Sequence record: PZ347775.1
Origin: a phage
DNA: 64,000 bases
Strand: one strand, 5' to 3'
The translations under genes were made by a program, and so were the position numbers. Of this stretch, positions 19,398-56,156 are shown piece by piece. Under the pieces are notes generated by a model, which saw only the letters and a list, made by a program, of their open reading frames with translations, did not search any database and was not told the DNA's origin. How positions within the stretch are numbered: position 1 is the first letter of the stretch; each line of letters starts with the position of its first letter.

Positions 19398-19594
19398 TTT
19401 GAATGCTCTATAATTAATTTTAAGGCTTCTTCATGCACCTTACCTAATTGTATATGTCCAGTTTTAATTGTGTAAGCTTTGTGGAGCTGATTAGATAAGA
19501 GCTCACATACGAGCTCCTTGTCATAATTTTTAAATAGCTGGTCAATACGTTTCTTGTGGGCTTTCTTAAGCTGGCGTTTATTTAAACGAGCCAT
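19394..19594 (-). CDS. hypothetical protein (66 aa, basic)
   Basis: ORF between soc and gene 56. Confidence 0.5.
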   Translation of the reverse strand: MARLNKRQLKKAHKKRIDQLFKNYDKELVCELLSNQLHKAYTIKTGHIQLGKVHEEALKLIIEHSK

Positions 19595-20112
19595 TAATAA
19601 CCTCGGTCTTGACGAGCGAAGTTTTCAGCATTTTTCAGATAATAAAGTTTAAAGATTTCTTCAGCCGTAAGACCAAGACCTTGGAACATGTTCAGAACGA
19701 AATGAAGAATATCAATCATTTCGAATTTAATTTCCAACTGGTCTTGTGGAGACAAATCAGTAATTAGAGTTTCACGGCGTTCACCATGTTGAGCTTTCCA
19801 AGGCTTCCATACAGCAGATGCATCTTTTTCGCCATTGCTCATACCGCCAAGAGATGTCAGAAGTTCACGGAATTCATCGTCAATATAATCTTTCTGATTA
19901 CGTAGCCAATCAACAACTTCACCAGCAGTAGCCAAATCATCAGGATGACGATTATATTCAGGTTTATCTTTAGCTAAACGAACTTGCAGAGATTTCTGCA
20001 TATCAAGCATAACCTGCAGCGGGTCTTTTTCATCACAGAGAATATCCCAGTATTCATTTTGAGCTTTATCAGCGCCTTCGATCAGATGACTACATTCGTT
20101 GAAATGTGGCAT
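19594..20112 (-). CDS. 56: gp56 dCTPase/dUTPase (MazG-like dCTP pyrophosphatase)
   Basis: 172-aa ORF; T4 gp56 length; synteny. Confidence 0.88.
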   Translation of the reverse strand: MPHFNECSHLIEGADKAQNEYWDILCDEKDPLQVMLDMQKSLQVRLAKDKPEYNRHPDDLATAGEVVDWLRNQKDYIDDEFRELLTSLGGMSNGEKDASAVWKPWKAQHGERRETLITDLSPQDQLEIKFEMIDILHFVLNMFQGLGLTAEEIFKLYYLKNAENFARQDRGY

Positions 20113-20113
20113 G

Positions 20114-20764
20114 TTATTTTTCCTTTCTTATGAAGTTTTCTATCATATGTCTATAGCAGATATTAGGATAACCTGCCTTGACAGCTATTTTATTAAATTT
20201 TGTGCGCTTAGGTCTATTATTATAAACCCATAATTCATAAAGCGCATCATAACTATTCCATATTTCTCCTCGCCTAGGATTTGGTAAACCGTATCGAGGC
20301 GAATTTTTACCGCTAAATCTTCCTTTTCGGGCTTTACTCATATTAGCCTTGGCTTCATCGGATATAATTTTACCTTTATGAGCTAGACGCATTTTGGCTT
20401 TAGTTTCTTCTGGGGTCTTTTTGCCTTTAATCCATGACGGCTTGCCATATCTAGGATTATTTTCACCCGAGAAAAGAACAGAGTTTTGGATTTTAAGAGT
20501 TTCTATTAATCTACTTGTTAATTTAACACCTTTATTATATCGCATTAAATTTACAGCATAATGCAATCCTCTCACATCTGGATATATTTTAGTTAATAAT
20601 CTATGAGCTATAAAATGCTCACGCGCAGTTAACTCAACAAGATTGTTTTTGTCATCTGCTCCTCCTATACATCTAGGAATTATATGATGGCGTTCTTTAT
20701 ATCCGCCAAGATGCCGGCATTTAGCTTTTGTAATTAAAGCCGAGTAAATTTTTTGGTAATTCAC
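20114..20764 (-). CDS. free-standing HNH homing endonuclease with NUMOD-like DNA-binding repeats
   Basis: N-terminal His-Me finger ERHHIIPRCIGGADDKNNLVELTAREHFIAH; repeated basic K-G-K modules; GTG or nearby start with AAGGA SD. Confidence 0.8.
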   Translation of the reverse strand: MNYQKIYSALITKAKCRHLGGYKERHHIIPRCIGGADDKNNLVELTAREHFIAHRLLTKIYPDVRGLHYAVNLMRYNKGVKLTSRLIETLKIQNSVLFSGENNPRYGKPSWIKGKKTPEETKAKMRLAHKGKIISDEAKANMSKARKGRFSGKNSPRYGLPNPRRGEIWNSYDALYELWVYNNRPKRTKFNKIAVKAGYPNICYRHMIENFIRKEK

Positions 20765-25750: not shown

Positions 25751-26113
25751 TTAAAAGAATTTAAATTTTTTCTTTGACCTTTTATTAAATGCATCTTGTA
25801 GTTGCATTGTAATACATTTTTCTACATGAGGAGCTAACTCAGCTTTTCTTTCTTGGTCAAGAACAGCAAAGTCCATTACGACTTTTCCATCAACCCAATC
25901 TAATTTTGTCACATACACAATGTGTGTAGAACCGTCTTCTAGTTTAATGACAATCTCCTGGATAACATTTTCCATGGCAGATTTAATTATCTTAAGAGAT
26001 TCATTAAAAAGACGTTCTTTTCTTTCTTCTTCCCCCTCCGAAGAGGGGGATTCATCGATAATTTCTAGATCTAAATCTAAATCATCTTTATTCATTAAAT
26101 TCTTCCATATCAC
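25751..26113 (-). CDS. 40: gp40-position protein (120 aa)
   Basis: Synteny between uvsX and 41. Confidence 0.5.
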   Translation of the reverse strand: MIWKNLMNKDDLDLDLEIIDESPSSEGEEERKERLFNESLKIIKSAMENVIQEIVIKLEDGSTHIVYVTKLDWVDGKVVMDFAVLDQERKAELAPHVEKCITMQLQDAFNKRSKKKFKFF

Positions 26114-27269
26114 TTAACTGATCTAGGTCAGTTTCTAAATCAGCTGCTGATTTACTTTTACTTTCTGGAGATTTAAATTTTTCAACCTTTGAGTTAATCA
26201 ATTCATCAACTTCAGCTTCAACAATTTCATTACTATCAATAGCACCTAACTGATAAGCGCGTTTAATAGCATCTCGGAATGGTTGATGCTTAAATAAAGG
26301 ACCCCAGAATGTAGTGCAATTGGTATCTTTTGCACGCCAAGATTTTTCTTCGCGAATCATCTCGCCGGTTTCTTCATCAAGAAATTCACGAGCATACCAA
26401 CCATTTTTAGGTTTTACTACAAATCCTAGTTCAAGAGCCATATCTAACAATCCAGAATAAGGATCGATACCACCGTCAAATTTAACATCAATAAAGAATT
26501 TACTTTTTTCTTTGACGGTACGAGATTTTTCTACATTTAGAACAAATTGATACCCCTGAAGATCAGAACCATCTTTAATCTGACGCTTACCGATAATGAA
26601 TACAGTATCAGCTGAATACATTACGCCTGTACCACCTGTCATCACGGTTTTACTAAACATTTCAATTGTTTCAATTGTGTGGTTAACCGCAACACATGGA
26701 ATATTTTTAATGCTAAAATAAGGAGTAACAATACGGAATAATGACTTCAGTGATTTAGCACGAGTCATATCTGCCACAGATTTTTCATTCAAGGCATCTT
26801 CCGTTTCTTTCTTAGAAGCCATATTACCGATTGAGTCGATGAATACAATAACTTTTTCACCGCGCTCAATAGCTTCAAGCTGATTCACCATATCAATTTT
26901 CAGTTGTTCAACTGACTGGATTGGTGTATGAATTACTCGTTCCGGGTCAACTCCCATGGATCGCAAATAAGCTGGAGTAATACCAAATTCACTATCATAA
27001 AATAGACAAACCGCGTCAGGATATTTGTTCAAATACGCCGCAACCATAGTCAAAGACATATTTGATTTAAAGTGTTTAGAAGGACCTGCAAAAATGGTTA
27101 AACCAGACTGCATACCACCATCAATCGCGCCGGAAATAGCGATATTGAGCATTGGGATTTTTGTACGGATTACATCCTTTTCATTAAAGAATTTAGATGT
27201 AGTCAGTTCAGCAGTCATTTTAGAAGTGGAAGCTTTAATCAAACGGGATTTTAAATCTGCAATAGACAT
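26088..27269 (-). CDS. uvsX: UvsX RecA-like recombinase
   Basis: 393-aa ORF MSIADLKSRLIKASTSKMTAELTTSKFFNEKDVIRTKIPMLNIAISG; T4 UvsX. Confidence 0.95.
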   Translation of the reverse strand: MSIADLKSRLIKASTSKMTAELTTSKFFNEKDVIRTKIPMLNIAISGAIDGGMQSGLTIFAGPSKHFKSNMSLTMVAAYLNKYPDAVCLFYDSEFGITPAYLRSMGVDPERVIHTPIQSVEQLKIDMVNQLEAIERGEKVIVFIDSIGNMASKKETEDALNEKSVADMTRAKSLKSLFRIVTPYFSIKNIPCVAVNHTIETIEMFSKTVMTGGTGVMYSADTVFIIGKRQIKDGSDLQGYQFVLNVEKSRTVKEKSKFFIDVKFDGGIDPYSGLLDMALELGFVVKPKNGWYAREFLDEETGEMIREEKSWRAKDTNCTTFWGPLFKHQPFRDAIKRAYQLGAIDSNEIVEAEVDELINSKVEKFKSPESKSKSAADLETDLDQLSDMEEFNE

Positions 27270-27322
27270 TCATTTTTTCCATAGGCATCATTATATTTTC
27301 CTCACTGGTTAAAGATAGAGTA

Positions 27323-27350
27323 ATTATAACACAATAAATTTAGGCATTAA
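27323..27350 (-). promoter_or_regulatory. candidate middle promoter for uvsX (MotA-box-like TGCCTAA plus TATAAT)
   Basis: Minus-strand ttaaTGCCTAAatttattgtgtTATAAT, 11-nt gap; one mismatch to TGCTT core. Confidence 0.35.
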
Positions 27351-28195
27351 TCAACCGCTATTGGATGAATAGCATTAAACTTATGAAACGCTTCTGATTT
27401 TTCTTTGCGTGAAACACACATGCGAAGAACCTTTAATGGCTCGTCTTCTTCACCTAATGATTTTCGTTTTTCAATATTAGAAGTTTTCCAACGAGCTTGC
27501 TCTGGAAACTCTCTATTGATTTGCTCAAGAGCTCTATTATGTTTTGAATTACTACGAATTGAACTACATCCACCGGGGGCTTGTGCTTTTCCAGATACAA
27601 CTAGATATTTGAACAAGGCCAAATGCGGATAACCTTGATTAATTAAATTGAGAAATGCATACATATCTTCGCATAAATCAATTTTTCCATACCCAATTTG
27701 TTCTGTTGTAAGTTTTCCTAAATCATACCAGGTATTCGTGAATCCGTATGAATTTTCACGATAATTACCCCAAGATGAAGTAATTTTAAAAATAGGTAGA
27801 CGAGCATGACCATGATAATACCCGCAATCCATGGCATCTTCAACGTATTGAATCAATTCATAGAACTGTTCACGAGTTAACTGATTAATTTTATCTACGC
27901 AGCGACGATCATCTTTCTTTCGCATTGAACTCATACGAATAGTAGTATCATCATCAATCATCCAAATTCGTTGACCTGCATACATATCAGTAATTGCTTT
28001 ACGAGTTCCAGCAATTCCATTAACATCATCAGGAATAGTTATAATTTTAGCCCTAGACCCGTAAGCGTCATAATAAGCTTTTTCTTCATGTTCACGTACT
28101 ACAATATGAGGTTCATAATCAGTCGGAAACATATCAAGGGCAGAAACTGCCCCTACGCGTTGATAGCTTGGAATTACGAATTGAATCATTTCCAC
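27347..28195 (-). CDS. glycosyltransferase at the beta-gt locus (GT-A-like, DDD motif); candidate HMC-DNA glucosyl/gentiobiosyl transferase
   Basis: 282-aa ORF, IWMIDDDTTI DxD motif; does not resemble T4 beta-gt; occupies position between uvsX and 42. Confidence 0.6.
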   Translation of the reverse strand: MEMIQFVIPSYQRVGAVSALDMFPTDYEPHIVVREHEEKAYYDAYGSRAKIITIPDDVNGIAGTRKAITDMYAGQRIWMIDDDTTIRMSSMRKKDDRRCVDKINQLTREQFYELIQYVEDAMDCGYYHGHARLPIFKITSSWGNYRENSYGFTNTWYDLGKLTTEQIGYGKIDLCEDMYAFLNLINQGYPHLALFKYLVVSGKAQAPGGCSSIRSNSKHNRALEQINREFPEQARWKTSNIEKRKSLGEEDEPLKVLRMCVSRKEKSEAFHKFNAIHPIAVD

Positions 28196-28926
28196 TCACC
28201 GTTATAATCTTTTTTCGCAATATGGGTTTCGCCAGTTTTCCACCAATGGTCAACCAAATAAAAATGACGGGAATACACATGAAGGCTCCCGACATTCCAT
28301 ATAATGGAACCTGCTTTATACTGACGAGTTGAATCACCTGCATTCAAATCAGATACTAATTTATCTAGTACGTATTTTTGCCATGCATAATCATTACGGA
28401 ATCCGAAGACCACGTCATTTGAACGCATGTTAACCACTGCATTAATTTTCTTATCACGAATCAGGTACTGTACTGTATTAGTACACATGAAATCTGACAT
28501 GCCATCTTTATTGTAGTCAAATTGCATGGATGGACGAGTATAAATCATGATACCACGTCGAGAATCAGGATTTTGACCAAGTTCAGCTAAACACATATCA
28601 TATTGGGCATAGTTATCTTCTGACCAGATGGCCCAACCATAATTCGAGTTAATTTCGCCTTTAGAAGATGCTACCTGCTGCCAAATCTTTGGTGTTTCAC
28701 CTGGAATATCTTTAACAAACAGACTTTGAGACTTATACCATTCAAGTTCACGCTGAATGTATTCATCATTAAGAGCGCCAAAAATAAAAGGTTCATCTGC
28801 TACAAATGATGCACCAATAATTTCAATAGTTTTAACCCCGGTTTTATCAATTACGAAATCTTTTTCCTTTAATGCAAGACCCAAATCAAGACGGATTTCT
28901 TCAACTGTCATATAATCGTTAATCAT
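28186..28926 (-). CDS. 42: gp42 dCMP hydroxymethylase
   Basis: 246-aa ORF MINDYMTVEEIRLDLGLALKEKDFVIDKTGVKTIEIIGASF; T4 gp42. Confidence 0.93.
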   Translation of the reverse strand: MINDYMTVEEIRLDLGLALKEKDFVIDKTGVKTIEIIGASFVADEPFIFGALNDEYIQRELEWYKSQSLFVKDIPGETPKIWQQVASSKGEINSNYGWAIWSEDNYAQYDMCLAELGQNPDSRRGIMIYTRPSMQFDYNKDGMSDFMCTNTVQYLIRDKKINAVVNMRSNDVVFGFRNDYAWQKYVLDKLVSDLNAGDSTRQYKAGSIIWNVGSLHVYSRHFYLVDHWWKTGETHIAKKDYNGEWK

Positions 28927-29079
28927 TTAAACCTCAATTGATGCATTCATATTTAATTTGTAACAGTAATAAACTCCAACCTATAATAAGTGGCGGAATC
29001 ATAAGAGGAACTGTTACGCTATAGTATATACTTATTATAATCATTAAGATTAAAAGCAATACTGCTAAAATTTTGCTTT

Positions 29080-29331
29080 TCATTCCTTCTCTCTGATGAT
29101 AATTACTTGATTTGGCTGTGTTGACTTTTTAGTTTCACCGGCAATTGACCAAATAAATGTAATAAACCAACCAATGATTGACCAGTTAAACAGTAAAGAT
29201 GTGAAAAAGATTCCTACTGTCGATTTTGACCCACGCATCAAGGCGATGAACCAAGGAAGCATGTATATAATAATAGCCAACACGCCTGAAACTAAAACCA
29301 TAAAAATTGAACCTGCTACTAAAGTTTCCAT
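29080..29331 (-). CDS. imm: Imm immunity (superinfection exclusion) membrane protein
   Basis: 83-aa ORF with two TM helices; T4 Imm size and position. Confidence 0.85.
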   Translation of the reverse strand: METLVAGSIFMVLVSGVLAIIIYMLPWFIALMRGSKSTVGIFFTSLLFNWSIIGWFITFIWSIAGETKKSTQPNQVIIIREKE

Positions 29332-29338
29332 GTTTTCC

Positions 29339-29719
29339 TTACTTAGTCAAATTTTTTACACATGAATTATAAGAATTTACTACATACTCCATCGGAGCAT
29401 TTTTACCGGTACGCCATTGGTAATTATTAGCCCAATTTGCCCAAAGTTCAGCACAGTAGTTTTCAATTTTTTCTTCACGCGTAATCACATCTGAATTACG
29501 ATATGCTTGTGCAGATTCATCTGGACGAATAGCTTCGTCAAAATTCGCCTGCATTTGTTCTACTGTCTGTTTTGGAGCCTCTTTATAACACTTGACGTTA
29601 GGATTATAAAATTTGCTTGAACAGTTTACAATTTTTCCTACATCAGACTGATTTACTACTGGTCCTTGAGCTACACATCCAGTAAGACCCAATGCAATAA
29701 CCAAAATAGCGATTTTCAT
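29339..29719 (-). CDS. lipoprotein (imm.1 position)
   Basis: 126-aa ORF; signal peptide with lipobox LTGC. Confidence 0.6.
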   Translation of the reverse strand: MKIAILVIALGLTGCVAQGPVVNQSDVGKIVNCSSKFYNPNVKCYKEAPKQTVEQMQANFDEAIRPDESAQAYRNSDVITREEKIENYCAELWANWANNYQWRTGKNAPMEYVVNSYNSCVKNLTK

Positions 29720-29729
29720 AATAATTTCC

Positions 29730-29966
29730 TCAAATACAAGTAGTAATTACTCCAGTAGTGCTTACACAGGTATTACCTAATTGAACACCCAGCGTTCCAT
29801 TAGTATTCATATGAAGATTATCATCAATTTTTGTTGATACTTTACCATTCATGTGAATAATAGTATTAGATTCAATCACATTCTGAGTGTCATTTTCAAT
29901 ATCAATAAATGGAACAGTTGCTAATGCAACTAAACACACTGCTAAACAACCATAAACAATTTTCAT
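29730..29966 (-). CDS. small exported protein (78 aa)
   Basis: ATG at 29964-29966 after GGAGAATAAA cassette; N-terminal signal-like hydrophobic segment; track ORF runs through promoter. Confidence 0.5.
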   Translation of the reverse strand: MKIVYGCLAVCLVALATVPFIDIENDTQNVIESNTIIHMNGKVSTKIDDNLHMNTNGTLGVQLGNTCVSTTGVITTCI

Positions 29967-30000
29967 TTTATTCTCCAAATCCGTATCAGTTGATAGTTGT

Positions 30001-30030
30001 ATAGTATCATGGAAGAACGGGAATGTAAAC
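30001..30030 (-). promoter_or_regulatory. T4-type early promoter
   Basis: -35 GTTTAC (30025-30030), 18 nt, -10 TACTAT (30001-30006). Confidence 0.5.
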
Positions 30031-30118
30031 AGTTTTGTGAAAAAATTTTTAATGAATTTACAGGACCTAGAATCATCTATTTTTCCTAAGTATAGATTTA
30101 TATTACTTGTATGAAAAA

Positions 30119-30134
30119 GGGACCCGGAGGTCCC
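30119..30134 (-). terminator. hairpin downstream of gene 43
   Basis: gggacc-cgga-ggtccc followed on minus strand by U-rich sequence. Confidence 0.5.
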
Positions 30135-30147
30135 TAGATTTATTCTA

Positions 30148-32844
30148 TCAGCCAAACAGGAAGTCTAACGAAGCTTTTTCCTCATAGTCCATACCTGCCG
30201 ATTCACACATACCCGCAAGCGGTTTAACAAACGATTTTTGGAACAAAGTTGAGTAGTCAATCCAAGACAGCACGTCAGAACGAATTTCTTTTGGAAGTTC
30301 CGTACCCGATGGCCAAGCAATGCACTTGTCACCAAATGGATTTCCTTCACGTAATGGAAGAACCATTACCTTATTTCCATCCAAAATTGGAGCTACACCT
30401 AAACCGCTAACAGCTCGACGATAAGTTAGCACACCACGAATATGGAACGGACATTTAAATCCTGGCCAACCTTTATCATCATATTTCGCTATATCGTTCG
30501 CAGTTTTTACTTCAGCAATAACTTTATAGTCAAGTTGACGATATTCTTTCTCAAAGTTCTTGTAGTATTCTTGGACAGACTCTTCGCCTTCCTGAAGAAT
30601 ACGACGAATACTTTCTTCGAGAGCTTCTTGTACTGCTTTTGGTGTTGAGCTCTGCTGAGTTTCCATACCCATGATTTTTAGATGCGGTTCGGCAAATCGC
30701 TTATCTTCCATATCATAAACGTTCAGAGCATAACGTTTTTTCGCTTTCCAAAATCCACCAACGCCCTTTGAACCAAGCGGAGGGCAAGAAATAGCTTCAC
30801 GGTCCATATGCATCAGATGCTCGCGGTTATTCATATAATCACATAACTCACGATATGCAACATCAATCATAGGTTCCATCTTTTTCTTACCAAACTGATT
30901 CATGAATTCAACTAAATCATTTTGTTCTTTAAAGCGATCAAGACCTACTTTTTCAATAACTTTATCTACACAAACATATACCGAATCAGTATCACCTGCT
31001 GCGATGAAATCTTCACCATTAGTTCCACATACTTTATTCAGATATTCATTAATTTTGCGAGCAATCCACTGAATACCAACTTGTCCAAAAATCGTGATAG
31101 CAGTAGCATTTCGCAAATCATAGTAGCGGAAATGAATATTACCAAGAGCACCATAAAGACTGTTGATAAGAATTTTACGGTTCAGCTGATTTGTGTTAGC
31201 AAGTGTAGCTGCTTTTTCACATTCTTCAATCAAACTATTGAGAACAGATTCAGTATAATTCGATAGTTCATTTAAGAAATCATCACTGAACTTAACATAT
31301 CGTTCAACTTCAGGTTTAGTTGAACAGGACCCTGCACCTTTCATAATAATCTTTTTAATAGCTTCGGCATTCATTTCTTCGGCGAACATTTTCTTTTTCC
31401 AATCTTTACGCTGGAAAAATACTTTAGCGATTTCCTTTGGAATGATACCTTCTTGATGCTTATCATACATCCATCCATTCGGAGAACATGAATACTCATC
31501 ACTTGGCTTAGGAGCTGTTCCTGCGATATATTCATGAATTGGATGAACTTTAAACTGTCCACGAATAGTCTCAGGACTAATGTTAACCTGACGAATAATG
31601 CTAGGATACAGAGACGTCAAGTCAAAACTCATAATGTATCGACGAGCAATTGGTTTAGGTTCAAACACAAATGCACCCGGAAAACTCTGTTTAACGTGTG
31701 AACCTTGTTGAGGAATAACCTTATGTTCACTTTTCAACGAGTTAAAAATAATAGCATCCCAAGTTTTAATAGGACTCATTACACCAGAAAAAGGCATTTT
31801 AGCATAATAAGACATACTTAAAACTAGATCGATAAACCCACGAATTTTATCAATTGCTTGAACTGATTCTACGTCAATAATGTTATAACTAATGTATCGT
31901 TGATGATTAGTCTCACGAAGTTTATTAATAGGACCATCGTACGGCAATTTACCTTTTTTGGTTTCATGTTGAGCAACTGATTCCAAAGAGAATGATGGCA
32001 AATTAGTAAATGCGAATTTCTTGTACAAATCTAAATAATCAAGAATAGATACGCCATCAATAGAATAAATTTCTTTGCTACCGTACATATTTTGAATTAG
32101 TTTAGATTTTACTCGACCGATTGGAGAGAAGCGTTTCATACTGCGTTCGCCCAGAACCATTTTAACACGATTCATGATATACGGAACGTCAAATCCCTCA
32201 ATATTCCAACCAGTAAAAATAGCAGGTCGTTTCTGTTCCCAGAGATTAATATATTCCATGAGCATATCACGCTCATTATCAAATGGCATATAAATTACTC
32301 GGTCAAGAATTTCTTGAGGAACTTCATCACCACCTTCACAGTCAAGTTTAGCAGCTAACTTTGCATCCCATTTTGATACTGAACCGTACATTGAATTCAA
32401 CAAATCAAAGACGTAAAAACGGTCGTCAATTGAATCATAATGAGTGATAGCATCAATTTCATATTCTGCTTTCATTGGGTCAGGAAATTTATCGCCAGTA
32501 ACCTCAATGTCACAGTTAGCTACACGAACAAATTTTCGGTCATAAACAATTTCTGAACCATATGTATCACTGATATAAGCGAGTTTAAAATCGTTCATAC
32601 CGAGAGCTTCGAGACCGATGTCTTCCATTCGTTTCATCCAATCTCGGGCATCTTTCATTGATGGAAATTTTTGAGGAGCACAGTTTTTACCATAAATGTC
32701 TTTGTATTTTGACTCTTCCTTACAATGCCTAAACATAGTCGGAAGATATTCTACTTCGCGAGTACGTTCCTTTCCGTTTTCATCAATATAACGTTCAACA
32801 ATGCTATTTCCGACTGTTTCAATAGAGATATAAAATTCTTTCAT
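30148..32844 (-). CDS. 43: gp43 DNA polymerase (family B)
   Basis: 898-aa ORF MKEFYISIETVGNSIVERYIDENGKERTREVEYLPTMF; exo and pol motifs (DTDS); T4 gp43. Confidence 0.97.
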   Translation of the reverse strand: MKEFYISIETVGNSIVERYIDENGKERTREVEYLPTMFRHCKEESKYKDIYGKNCAPQKFPSMKDARDWMKRMEDIGLEALGMNDFKLAYISDTYGSEIVYDRKFVRVANCDIEVTGDKFPDPMKAEYEIDAITHYDSIDDRFYVFDLLNSMYGSVSKWDAKLAAKLDCEGGDEVPQEILDRVIYMPFDNERDMLMEYINLWEQKRPAIFTGWNIEGFDVPYIMNRVKMVLGERSMKRFSPIGRVKSKLIQNMYGSKEIYSIDGVSILDYLDLYKKFAFTNLPSFSLESVAQHETKKGKLPYDGPINKLRETNHQRYISYNIIDVESVQAIDKIRGFIDLVLSMSYYAKMPFSGVMSPIKTWDAIIFNSLKSEHKVIPQQGSHVKQSFPGAFVFEPKPIARRYIMSFDLTSLYPSIIRQVNISPETIRGQFKVHPIHEYIAGTAPKPSDEYSCSPNGWMYDKHQEGIIPKEIAKVFFQRKDWKKKMFAEEMNAEAIKKIIMKGAGSCSTKPEVERYVKFSDDFLNELSNYTESVLNSLIEECEKAATLANTNQLNRKILINSLYGALGNIHFRYYDLRNATAITIFGQVGIQWIARKINEYLNKVCGTNGEDFIAAGDTDSVYVCVDKVIEKVGLDRFKEQNDLVEFMNQFGKKKMEPMIDVAYRELCDYMNNREHLMHMDREAISCPPLGSKGVGGFWKAKKRYALNVYDMEDKRFAEPHLKIMGMETQQSSTPKAVQEALEESIRRILQEGEESVQEYYKNFEKEYRQLDYKVIAEVKTANDIAKYDDKGWPGFKCPFHIRGVLTYRRAVSGLGVAPILDGNKVMVLPLREGNPFGDKCIAWPSGTELPKEIRSDVLSWIDYSTLFQKSFVKPLAGMCESAGMDYEEKASLDFLFG

Positions 32845-39781: not shown

Positions 39782-39799
39782 AAAGGGCCGAAGCCCTTT
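39782..39799 (-). terminator. UUCG-tetraloop hairpin
   Basis: aaagggccgaagcccttt overlapping alpha-gt stop. Confidence 0.45.
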
Positions 39800-41000
39800 A
39801 TTTTGTAATAATGTCAAACTGTTCTTTAAAGCAGAAGCTTGAATCTTGATGCTGATACAAAAATTCATAAGCTTTTTCGCGTTCACGGTCATAAAGAGCT
39901 CGGTCAGATGACAGTTCTTTAATACGCTCAAATGTTGATTCCATGTCATTTTCATCAAACCAAACGATACCGCTATCATGAGAAATTAACGGAGTATTAT
40001 CAACACGGAATTTTAAATTTTCACCAGTAGATTTCCAAAATACTGGAATTGTTCCGCATGCACCAAGCTCGAGATGAGTGTATTCTAAAGAACGTTGTAG
40101 ATATTTTTTATCTAATTTACTCAGCTGATAACCAAATCCGGATTTACTCATACGTTCAAGCATTTCGCTATTTACATAACGGTCGAGAATTTGCGTTGGC
40201 AAATTAGGAGCAATTTTAATTTGGTCTACCTGATGAAGACGATAATACTCATATGGAATTCCTTTTTCTTTAATAGGAATGAACGCTGGAGAACGTTCCA
40301 GACCTTCCATAATAGTACTCAATCCCGCAGGTTTAAGATGTTTTTCATGAAAATCAAACATCTGATAAAAGCCTTTCCATGTAGTAGTACGACCAATCCA
40401 ACGGTTGATATTCATGTTAATTTCAGAAACATCTTTCCAGTAGGTTGATCGAACCTTCGCAATATCCATAGGAGGCTGAAAGTTATATACGGTCGGTGCT
40501 TCTTCAATATCATCAAACAGAGAAACTGTTTCTGGATACCATTCTTTCATCAGAACTTTATTAAAATCACCATTATCAGAATGACTAAAAATAACATCAG
40601 CTCGACGAACAGTTTCTTCTAATCCCAAATTTCGGCGCAAAGAAAGAGAAGAATGGTCATGTTGATAAACTACAACACGAACCGAAGGTTTAATGTTATC
40701 AATAATTTTTTTATAGTTATTAATAGTGTCTTCTTCGACTGAAGTAGCAGGAACTGAATTGATAACTAGAATATCACAATCATTTACCAGCTTAAGTGTT
40801 TTATCGTATTCTTTTGCCAATAAAACCGGAATTGAAAATGATTTATAATCATGCGCGCAATTACGGGTAAATGATTTATCTTTAGCATAAACCAAAGTTA
40901 CTTCATGACCATTTTTAATAAACCAATCACGCTGCTCAAGAGAAAATTTAGTTACACCACAACCTTCAAGACCTCGAGCCATAAAAATGCATACTTTCAT
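39798..41000 (-). CDS. a-gt: alpha-glucosyltransferase (HMC-DNA)
   Basis: 400-aa ORF CIFMARGLEGCGVTKFSLEQRDWFIKNGHEVTLVYAKDKSF; T4 alpha-gt. Confidence 0.92.
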   Translation of the reverse strand: MKVCIFMARGLEGCGVTKFSLEQRDWFIKNGHEVTLVYAKDKSFTRNCAHDYKSFSIPVLLAKEYDKTLKLVNDCDILVINSVPATSVEEDTINNYKKIIDNIKPSVRVVVYQHDHSSLSLRRNLGLEETVRRADVIFSHSDNGDFNKVLMKEWYPETVSLFDDIEEAPTVYNFQPPMDIAKVRSTYWKDVSEINMNINRWIGRTTTWKGFYQMFDFHEKHLKPAGLSTIMEGLERSPAFIPIKEKGIPYEYYRLHQVDQIKIAPNLPTQILDRYVNSEMLERMSKSGFGYQLSKLDKKYLQRSLEYTHLELGACGTIPVFWKSTGENLKFRVDNTPLISHDSGIVWFDENDMESTFERIKELSSDRALYDREREKAYEFLYQHQDSSFCFKEQFDIITK

Positions 41001-41050
41001 TTAATATCCTCATTGTTTTGGTTTATTTTACCAAAAATTTATAAAGCAAT

Positions 41051-41070
41051 ATAGGAGCCGAAGCTCCTAT
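41051..41070 (-). terminator. UUCG-type hairpin
   Basis: ataggagccgaagctcctat upstream of alpha-gt. Confidence 0.4.
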
Positions 41071-41243
41071 CCGCATAATACACCATACAGAGGCTCATTA
41101 GAGCTTCTAAATTTTATACGTTTATGTGTTATAGTTCCTTCTGCTTTAGCTTTATCATGAGACTCTTTAAAGCGCCTCATCATTTCTACTTTAGAGGAAC
41201 GAATTTTATTATAATCTATTTCAGAAGTCTGGGTGTTCATCTT

Positions 41244-41450
41244 TCACAGTTGCCACCATTTTTTGACTTGATAAGAATCAACCCACACTTTCATATTAGG
41301 GTCTGCTCTTACAATAGGAGGATTAACTTCTTTAATTGAACTATCATGGTATTCTTTTTCAGAAATTTTCACACAAAGATGACCATTCAAAGATTCAGTA
41401 AATCCTGCATTAATTTTAAGACGCTTGAATTTTACGCGTGTAAGCATCAA
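41244..41450 (-). CDS. hypothetical protein (68 aa)
   Basis: ORF between 55 and alpha-gt. Confidence 0.45.
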   Translation of the reverse strand: MMLTRVKFKRLKINAGFTESLNGHLCVKISEKEYHDSSIKEVNPPIVRADPNMKVWVDSYQVKKWWQL

Positions 41451-55436: not shown

Positions 55437-56156
55437 TTAGGATTCTTCTAAATGTCTTTTCTGAAAAGTTGATACCATACTACGATACGGTTCATTTGGA
55501 TACCCGTGTTTTATAGCTTCCTTTGTAAATTTTCTCCATCCATATTTAGTTTCTTTCCAAAGCTCGAATAATTCATCTTCATATTGCCATATAGTTAAAT
55601 GAGAACGCTTTGCAGCTTTAATTCCATTAATATGCTTTTCTTTTACTACAGGATTACTTAGTTTCTTTTTAATAATATTACTAACTTTTCTAACAAAAAC
55701 TGGGTCCTTATATCGTTGCGAAGTTTTTATTGAAGTGTTTAATTTAGCTTCCGGTGTGGATGTGACCTCTTTCATCTTTTTCTTCATATGCTGTATATGA
55801 TTAGGATTTTTCCATAAATTTATAGAATGCTTTTTGCATTTTATCCTAGTTTCATCTGCAACCTTTCCTCCTTCACCTCCGTATGACAGGTTAACACAGT
55901 TTTTTCCATATTTCAATTTACCTGCCATGATATATAATATTTCAGCTTGTACCATTTTATCATAATTATCAAAAACTTCTAAAACCGTTTTTGTTAATAT
56001 GTGGTCATTTGACACTTTTACACGTTCTATATAATTTCCACTACCAACATACGAATCATTGATGTTATTAGTTATATGTCGACCATAATAGTATTTCTTA
56101 ATACCTGTCTTTAAATTTAATATTTCAGTTTTATAGATAGTAAAATATTTTTTCAT
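55437..56156 (-). CDS. free-standing GIY-YIG (Seg-like) homing endonuclease
   Basis: N-terminal TIYKTEILNLKTGIKKYYYGRH ... SYVGSG; NUMOD-like repeats; C-terminal ELW...GYPN...YR module shared with the HNH endonuclease. Confidence 0.8.
   Translation of the reverse strand: MKKYFTIYKTEILNLKTGIKKYYYGRHITNNINDSYVGSGNYIERVKVSNDHILTKTVLEVFDNYDKMVQAEILYIMAGKLKYGKNCVNLSYGGEGGKVADETRIKCKKHSINLWKNPNHIQHMKKKMKEVTSTPEAKLNTSIKTSQRYKDPVFVRKVSNIIKKKLSNPVVKEKHINGIKAAKRSHLTIWQYEDELFELWKETKYGWRKFTKEAIKHGYPNEPYRSMVSTFQKRHLEES

Follow-up and report, generated by a model that had tools for sequence, protein, structure and literature searches.

A probable T2/T6-type beta-alpha glucosyltransferase gene at the beta-gt locus of a Tequatrovirus

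The region between gene 42 and uvsX

The window analyzed here, a 64-kb (64,000-nucleotide) stretch of a phage genome of ~167 kb, is Tequatrovirus DNA; as a whole it matches many published isolates at ~96 to 98% identity, and none of them exactly. Its features of interest are the following:

19594..20112, minus strand: probable gp56 dCTPase/dUTPase; matches PHROG 173, nucleoside triphosphate pyrophosphohydrolase (E 5.6e-47)
26088..27269, minus strand: uvsX recombinase, the downstream flank; RecA-family matches, nucleotide sequence 87% identical to that of T4 uvsX as far as 27257
27258..28203, no strand assigned: segment without T4 nucleotide homology (blastn of the window against T4), replacing segA and beta-gt
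27347..28189, minus strand: probable beta-glucosyl-HMC-alpha-glucosyltransferase (ba-gt or g-gt; Pfam TAGT family), 280 aa from ATG
28186..28926, minus strand: gene 42, dCMP hydroxymethylase (hmC precursor); PF00303, 96% identical to T4 gp42
39798..41000, minus strand: alpha-glucosyltransferase (a-gt), 400 aa; PF11440 positions 1 to 355 of 355 (E 5e-236), PHROG 2888

The glycosyltransferase (GT) between gene 42 and uvsX had initially been annotated as a 282-aa open reading frame at 27347 to 28195. The frame is present on the minus strand and has that length when begun at GTG, but a better start is the ATG at 28189. The start region reads GTG GAA ATG ATT, and the ATG (28189..28187), two codons past the GTG, overlaps the TGA of gene 42 (28188..28186) as ATGA, the usual coupled start in T4-type phages. 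Because of this coupling, and because the orthologue in three T2 GenBank records is annotated from the same ATG (843 nt, 280 aa), we took the gene to be 27347..28189. Its reading frame is uninterrupted, every conserved residue is kept, and in base composition it does not stand out from the flanks.

A scan of positions 27000 to 29400 for sigma-70 promoters and terminators, which carries no information on T4 middle or early promoters, found 14 against 11.5 expected from shuffled sequence, a number not above chance; the sole terminator-like hairpin (28155..28135) lies inside the GT coding sequence and does not exceed what chance predicts. The 77 bp that separate the GT stop from the start of uvsX (27270-27346, minus strand; aaTGCCTAAatttattgtgtTATAATtactc) are, by eye, reminiscent of a T4 middle promoter: a MotA-box-like TGCnTnA lies ~12 bp upstream of TATAAT. 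Such a putative promoter would serve uvsX.

The initial annotation held that a glycosyltransferase different from that of T4 occupies the beta-gt locus, and this was borne out by the finding of a PF20691 glycosyltransferase between gene 42 and uvsX. By blastn, homology between the window and T4 stops at 27257 (uvsX, 87%) and restarts at 28204 (gene 42, 93%), leaving between conserved flanks an unalignable interval of 946 bp in the window versus 1.9 kb in T4, where it holds the homing endonuclease gene segA and beta-gt (T4 annotation, L001:3557-5497). Because homology breaks exactly at the flanks, we interpret the difference as replacement of a cassette and not as divergence of beta-gt.

The window GT is also, as had been proposed, unlike the 351-aa T4 beta-glucosyltransferase (b-gt; PDB 1JG7). 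Strong similarity between the two was looked for by BLASTP and was not found, the best match covering 8 residues at E 3.4, and tblastn of the T4 enzyme against the 64-kb window returned nothing (best E 1.3). T4 b-gt matches PF09198 (E 9e-98), a profile with no match in the window GT. It sits in the equivalent locus, between gene 42 and uvsX, but is accompanied by segA, which the window locus lacks; it has a GT-B fold, whereas the window GT is predicted to have a GT-A fold, and the two are unrelated in sequence. With UDP-glucose as donor, both T4 b-gt and the T2/T6 GT attach glucose in beta-linkage to modified phage DNA; the acceptor of the former is hmC itself and that of the latter is alpha-glucosyl-hmC.

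None of the close relatives of the window phage is annotated with beta-gt at this locus. The locus looks odd only when T4 serves as the reference, and it is T4 that is exceptional. Alpha-GT or beta-GT together with TAGT is the common pairing, while alpha-GT together with beta-GT is found in only 6 of 753 genomes, T4 included (PMC13216743). T4-like coliphages usually carry the T2/T6-type GT at this locus, and the finding is correct but ordinary.

The enzymes that make the acceptor, gp42 and alpha-GT, are both encoded at full length in the window. The alpha-gt gene, described earlier as intact, does span the whole PF11440 profile, and its product aligns gap-free with T4 alpha-gt over 400 aa at 91% identity. 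The gene at 19594..20112 was assigned as probable gp56 by size and position; gp56, a member of the hmC pathway, is a dCTPase/dUTPase that keeps unmodified C out of phage DNA.

Family membership and predicted fold

The GT protein belongs to PHROG 842 ("beta-glucosyl-HMC-alpha-glucosyltransferase"; E 1.9e-89, profile positions 3 to 269 of 270) and to Pfam PF20691 (TET-associated glycosyltransferase, TAGT; 38.8 bits, above the gathering score of 27.5, over positions 2 to 205 of the 205-position profile); NCBIfam has no model for it or for alpha-gt. Alignment with the T2 and T6 enzymes, the check suggested in the initial annotation, gave full-length protein identities of 98.2% to T2 and 97.5% to T6 "ggt". 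The T2/T6 gene (ba-gt, g-gt) likewise encodes 280 aa, is ATGA-coupled to gene 42, lies between the same two flanking genes, 42 and uvsX, and shares the alpha-GT partner and an invariant DDD motif with the window GT.

At the DNA level, the GT gene matches 479 phage records, 475 of them at 80% query coverage or more. Protein comparison gives 473 records at >95% identity and another 203, from T4-like phages of Klebsiella, Enterobacter, and Salmonella, at 60 to 80% identity, along with a few that are more distant; the window GT shares 99% identity with the sequence that represents a cluster of 485 members. TAGT homologues in phages of Klebsiella, Enterobacter, Salmonella, and Serratia (47 to 66% identity, full length) also lie beside a dCMP hydroxymethylase gene, but their substrates and products are uncharacterized. 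Among TAGT homologues of T4-like phages, some have beta-GT as their partner and some are the only GT (PMC13216743).

Two motifs were recognized in the protein:

27947..27955, minus strand: DDD (D79-D81), a DxD metal/UDP-sugar binding motif, invariant in the family alignment (A1)
28157..28171, minus strand: N-terminal P7-S-Y-Q-R11 motif, with P7, S8, Y9, and R11 invariant in A1

The first lies within IWMIDDDTT (codons GAT GAT GAT at 27955..27947), the GT-A-like DxD motif reported for this protein at the outset. In the structure model, D79-D81 follows the beta-strand E74-79, which is the canonical GT-A position; the predicted structure is of the GT-A type, carries the conserved DxD, and does not show the two Rossmann domains of GT-B. 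The T6 TAGT has itself been modeled as a GT-A fold, sister to GT2 (PMC13216743). Our model was built on a shallow 10-sequence alignment, because only 11 clusters were retrieved by the word-indexed search for homologues, and residues 87-100, 130-149, 194-210, and 278-280 form its low-confidence segments. A sequence search for a solved structure of any TAGT family member gave chance matches only (E > 0.7).

By analogy with GT2 enzymes, PSYQR is a likely counterpart of their "PxYN" nucleotide-binding motif and may contribute to UDP binding. Cellular GT2-family GT-A enzymes (the AvpGT beta-1,3-glucosyltransferase 9jma, the catalytic domains of cellulose and hyaluronan synthases, and TarP/TarS) are only 8 to 14% identical to the window GT. 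They differ from it in acceptor, which for the window GT would be a sugar on duplex DNA, and they offer no confident counterpart for its C-terminal ~80 residues and several of its loops.

Identity to the T2 and T6 enzymes, predicted fold, motif conservation, synteny, and partner genes were all established in this analysis, and every defining feature of a T2/T6 beta-alpha glucosyltransferase open to an in silico test is present. We therefore assign the window GT, with a probability of roughly 0.93, as a T2/T6-type beta-alpha glucosyltransferase of the TAGT family, with a GT-A fold and dependent on its DxD motif. The assignment adds no new biology: the literature already covers the gene, the activity and fold class of its product, and how the gene is distributed.

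Comparison of alleles and alternative readings

The window GT was aligned with its orthologues in three T2 records and two T6 records:

L003:3007-3849: phage T2
L005:3286-4128, minus strand: phage T2
L006:3295-4137, minus strand: phage T2
L002:3001-3849: phage T6, MH550421; amber codon at Q10 (CAG to TAG)
L004:4135-4974, minus strand: phage T6, AP018814; a 3-bp deletion removing one GAT of the GATGATGAT run (DDD to DD)

Four substitutions separate the window protein from T2 (window to T2: R11H, K92R, I101V, P251S) and five separate it from T6 (window to T6: Y40N, D55G, K92R, I101V, R106H). None of the positions at which the window differs from T6, Q10* included, is invariant in A1. R11H and P251S are present in all three T2 records. 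In homologues as distant as 32% identity (A1), position 11 is always R and position 251 nearly always P, and the window copy carries both of these consensus residues. Because of its amber codon, the T6 MH550421 coding sequence is annotated from M20, at 261 aa. Whether they are genuine mutations of laboratory stocks or errors of sequencing, the lesions in these two independent T6 records call for caution in reading a phenotype from gene presence alone. The window GT has neither the T2 changes at conserved residues nor the lesion of either T6 record.

Gentiobiosyl-hmC amounts to ~5% in T2 versus ~72% in T6, from near-identical genes (PMC11078745, PMC13390438); since T2 reaches only ~5% with the same gene, gene presence does not fix the modification level. 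A tentative explanation, to which we give somewhat less than an even chance, is that the gap is encoded in the gene itself: T2 would be a natural hypomorph through R11H and P251S, the window allele would be of high activity, and the window phage DNA would be T6-like. This account was not found stated in the literature cited here. The consensus R11 and P251 of the window copy weakly favor T6-like, high gentiobiosylation.

The same T2 value, quoted in PMC11078745 for a phage with a 98%-identical gene, suggests one alternative, namely, that the window GT is weak or inactive and the DNA, T2-like, consists almost wholly of alpha-glucosyl-hmC and hmC, with ~5% gentiobiosyl-hmC or less; the Q10* and DDD-to-DD changes in the two T6 records also point to dispensability in laboratory culture. 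We regard this alternative as unlikely. The window frame is open and keeps R11, D79-D81, all other A1-invariant residues, and P251, whereas T2 departs at exactly R11 and P251; the window copy is, moreover, nearly identical to the representative of its large cluster, and one-third to two-thirds of hmC is gentiobiosylated in most environmental Tequatroviruses measured (PMC13390438).

A further alternative is a TAGT enzyme whose specificity differs from that of T6 ba-gt, either in using another sugar donor or in accepting beta-glucosyl-hmC or bare hmC. The family is diverse, with homologues found beside alpha-GT, beside beta-GT, or alone, and the authors who described these pairings hold that differing TAGT specificities may exist (PMC13216743); the 47 to 66% identical homologues in Klebsiella, Enterobacter, and Serratia phages would fit such diversity. 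For the window GT, however, this is very unlikely at 97 to 98% identity to the genetically characterized T6 enzyme, with no window-versus-T6 difference at an A1-invariant position and with alpha-GT as the partner, as in T6.

That the gene is a highly diverged T4-type GT-B beta-glucosyltransferase, for which its position at T4's beta-gt locus is the one argument, is refuted to near certainty by the BLASTP result (E 3.4), the separate Pfam families, the predicted GT-A fold, and the break in T4 homology exactly at the flanks. An arabinosyltransferase of the RB69/Mosigvirus type was likewise rejected: the GT is 97 to 98% identical to the T2/T6 enzyme, and phages of that type, unlike the window phage, lack the hmC/alpha-GT partner genes (PMC13390438).

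Proposed DNA modification and other open reading frames

The T2/T6-type glycosylation pattern suggested in the initial annotation is supported by the orthology of the GT, its synteny, and its alpha-gt partner. In the proposed pathway, gp42 and the dCTPase would place hmC in DNA instead of C, alpha-GT would add alpha-linked glucose to about three quarters of the hmC residues, and the window GT, by orthology to the T6 enzyme, would transfer a second glucose from UDP-glucose in beta-1,6 linkage onto alpha-glucosyl-hmC, yielding gentiobiosyl-hmC. Translational coupling to gene 42 through the ATGA overlap would allow the GT to be expressed early with the hmC pathway. As the window contains no beta-GT, the DNA is expected to carry hmC, alpha-glucosyl-hmC, and gentiobiosyl-hmC and no beta-glucosyl-hmC, which would place the phage in the majority T2/T6-type class.

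This chemistry, and the protection from Brig1 and BapA that it would confer, are drawn from published work on related phages. Without ba-gt, T6 DNA behaves as if it carried alpha-glucosyl-hmC only and is degradable by Brig1, an alpha-glucosyl-hmC glycosylase, and the phage is more sensitive to Brig1 (PMC11078745). The glucosidase BapA releases glucose from T6 delta-g-gt DNA and none from wild-type T6 DNA (bioRxiv 10.64898/2026.02.25.707755). Environmental Tequatroviruses with alpha-GT and TAGT and without a syntenic beta-GT contain, by HPLC/MS, 5-hmdC, alpha-glucosyl-mdC, and alpha-gentiobiosyl-mdC, in proportions of ~1:2:2 or as approximately one-third hmC and two-thirds gentiobiosyl-hmC (PMC13390438).

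The modification class matters since it predicts how a phage behaves against modification-dependent defenses. According to published work, gentiobiosyl-hmC is resistant in vitro to both the Brig1 glycosylase and the BapA glucosidase, the ~25% of hmC left bare exposes T2/T6-type phages to the hmC glycosylase Brig3, and the doubly glucosylated base is still recognized by GmrSD-type enzymes.

Each glucosyltransferase cassette of T4 is flanked by a homing endonuclease, and the window phage lacks both: segA (GIY-YIG, beside beta-gt in T4) is absent at 27258-28203, and at 41001-41415 there is no open reading frame comparable in size to mobB, the alpha-gt neighbor in T4. Homing-endonuclease-like reading frames occur elsewhere in the window, at 20114-20764 (minus strand, 216 aa; PHROG 655, E 1e-59; weak SegA similarity) and at 55437-56156 (minus strand, 239 aa; 25% identical to T4 SegA, tblastn E 3e-10). 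Between gene 43 and imm.1, an interval with no annotated gene in T4, lies a TTG-initiated frame of 141 aa (29730-30155, minus strand) that is probably too long: the match to the phage family PHROG 4189 is confined to its C-terminal 78 residues, and this part corresponds to an 83-aa open reading frame annotated in T2 (RB51ORF048).
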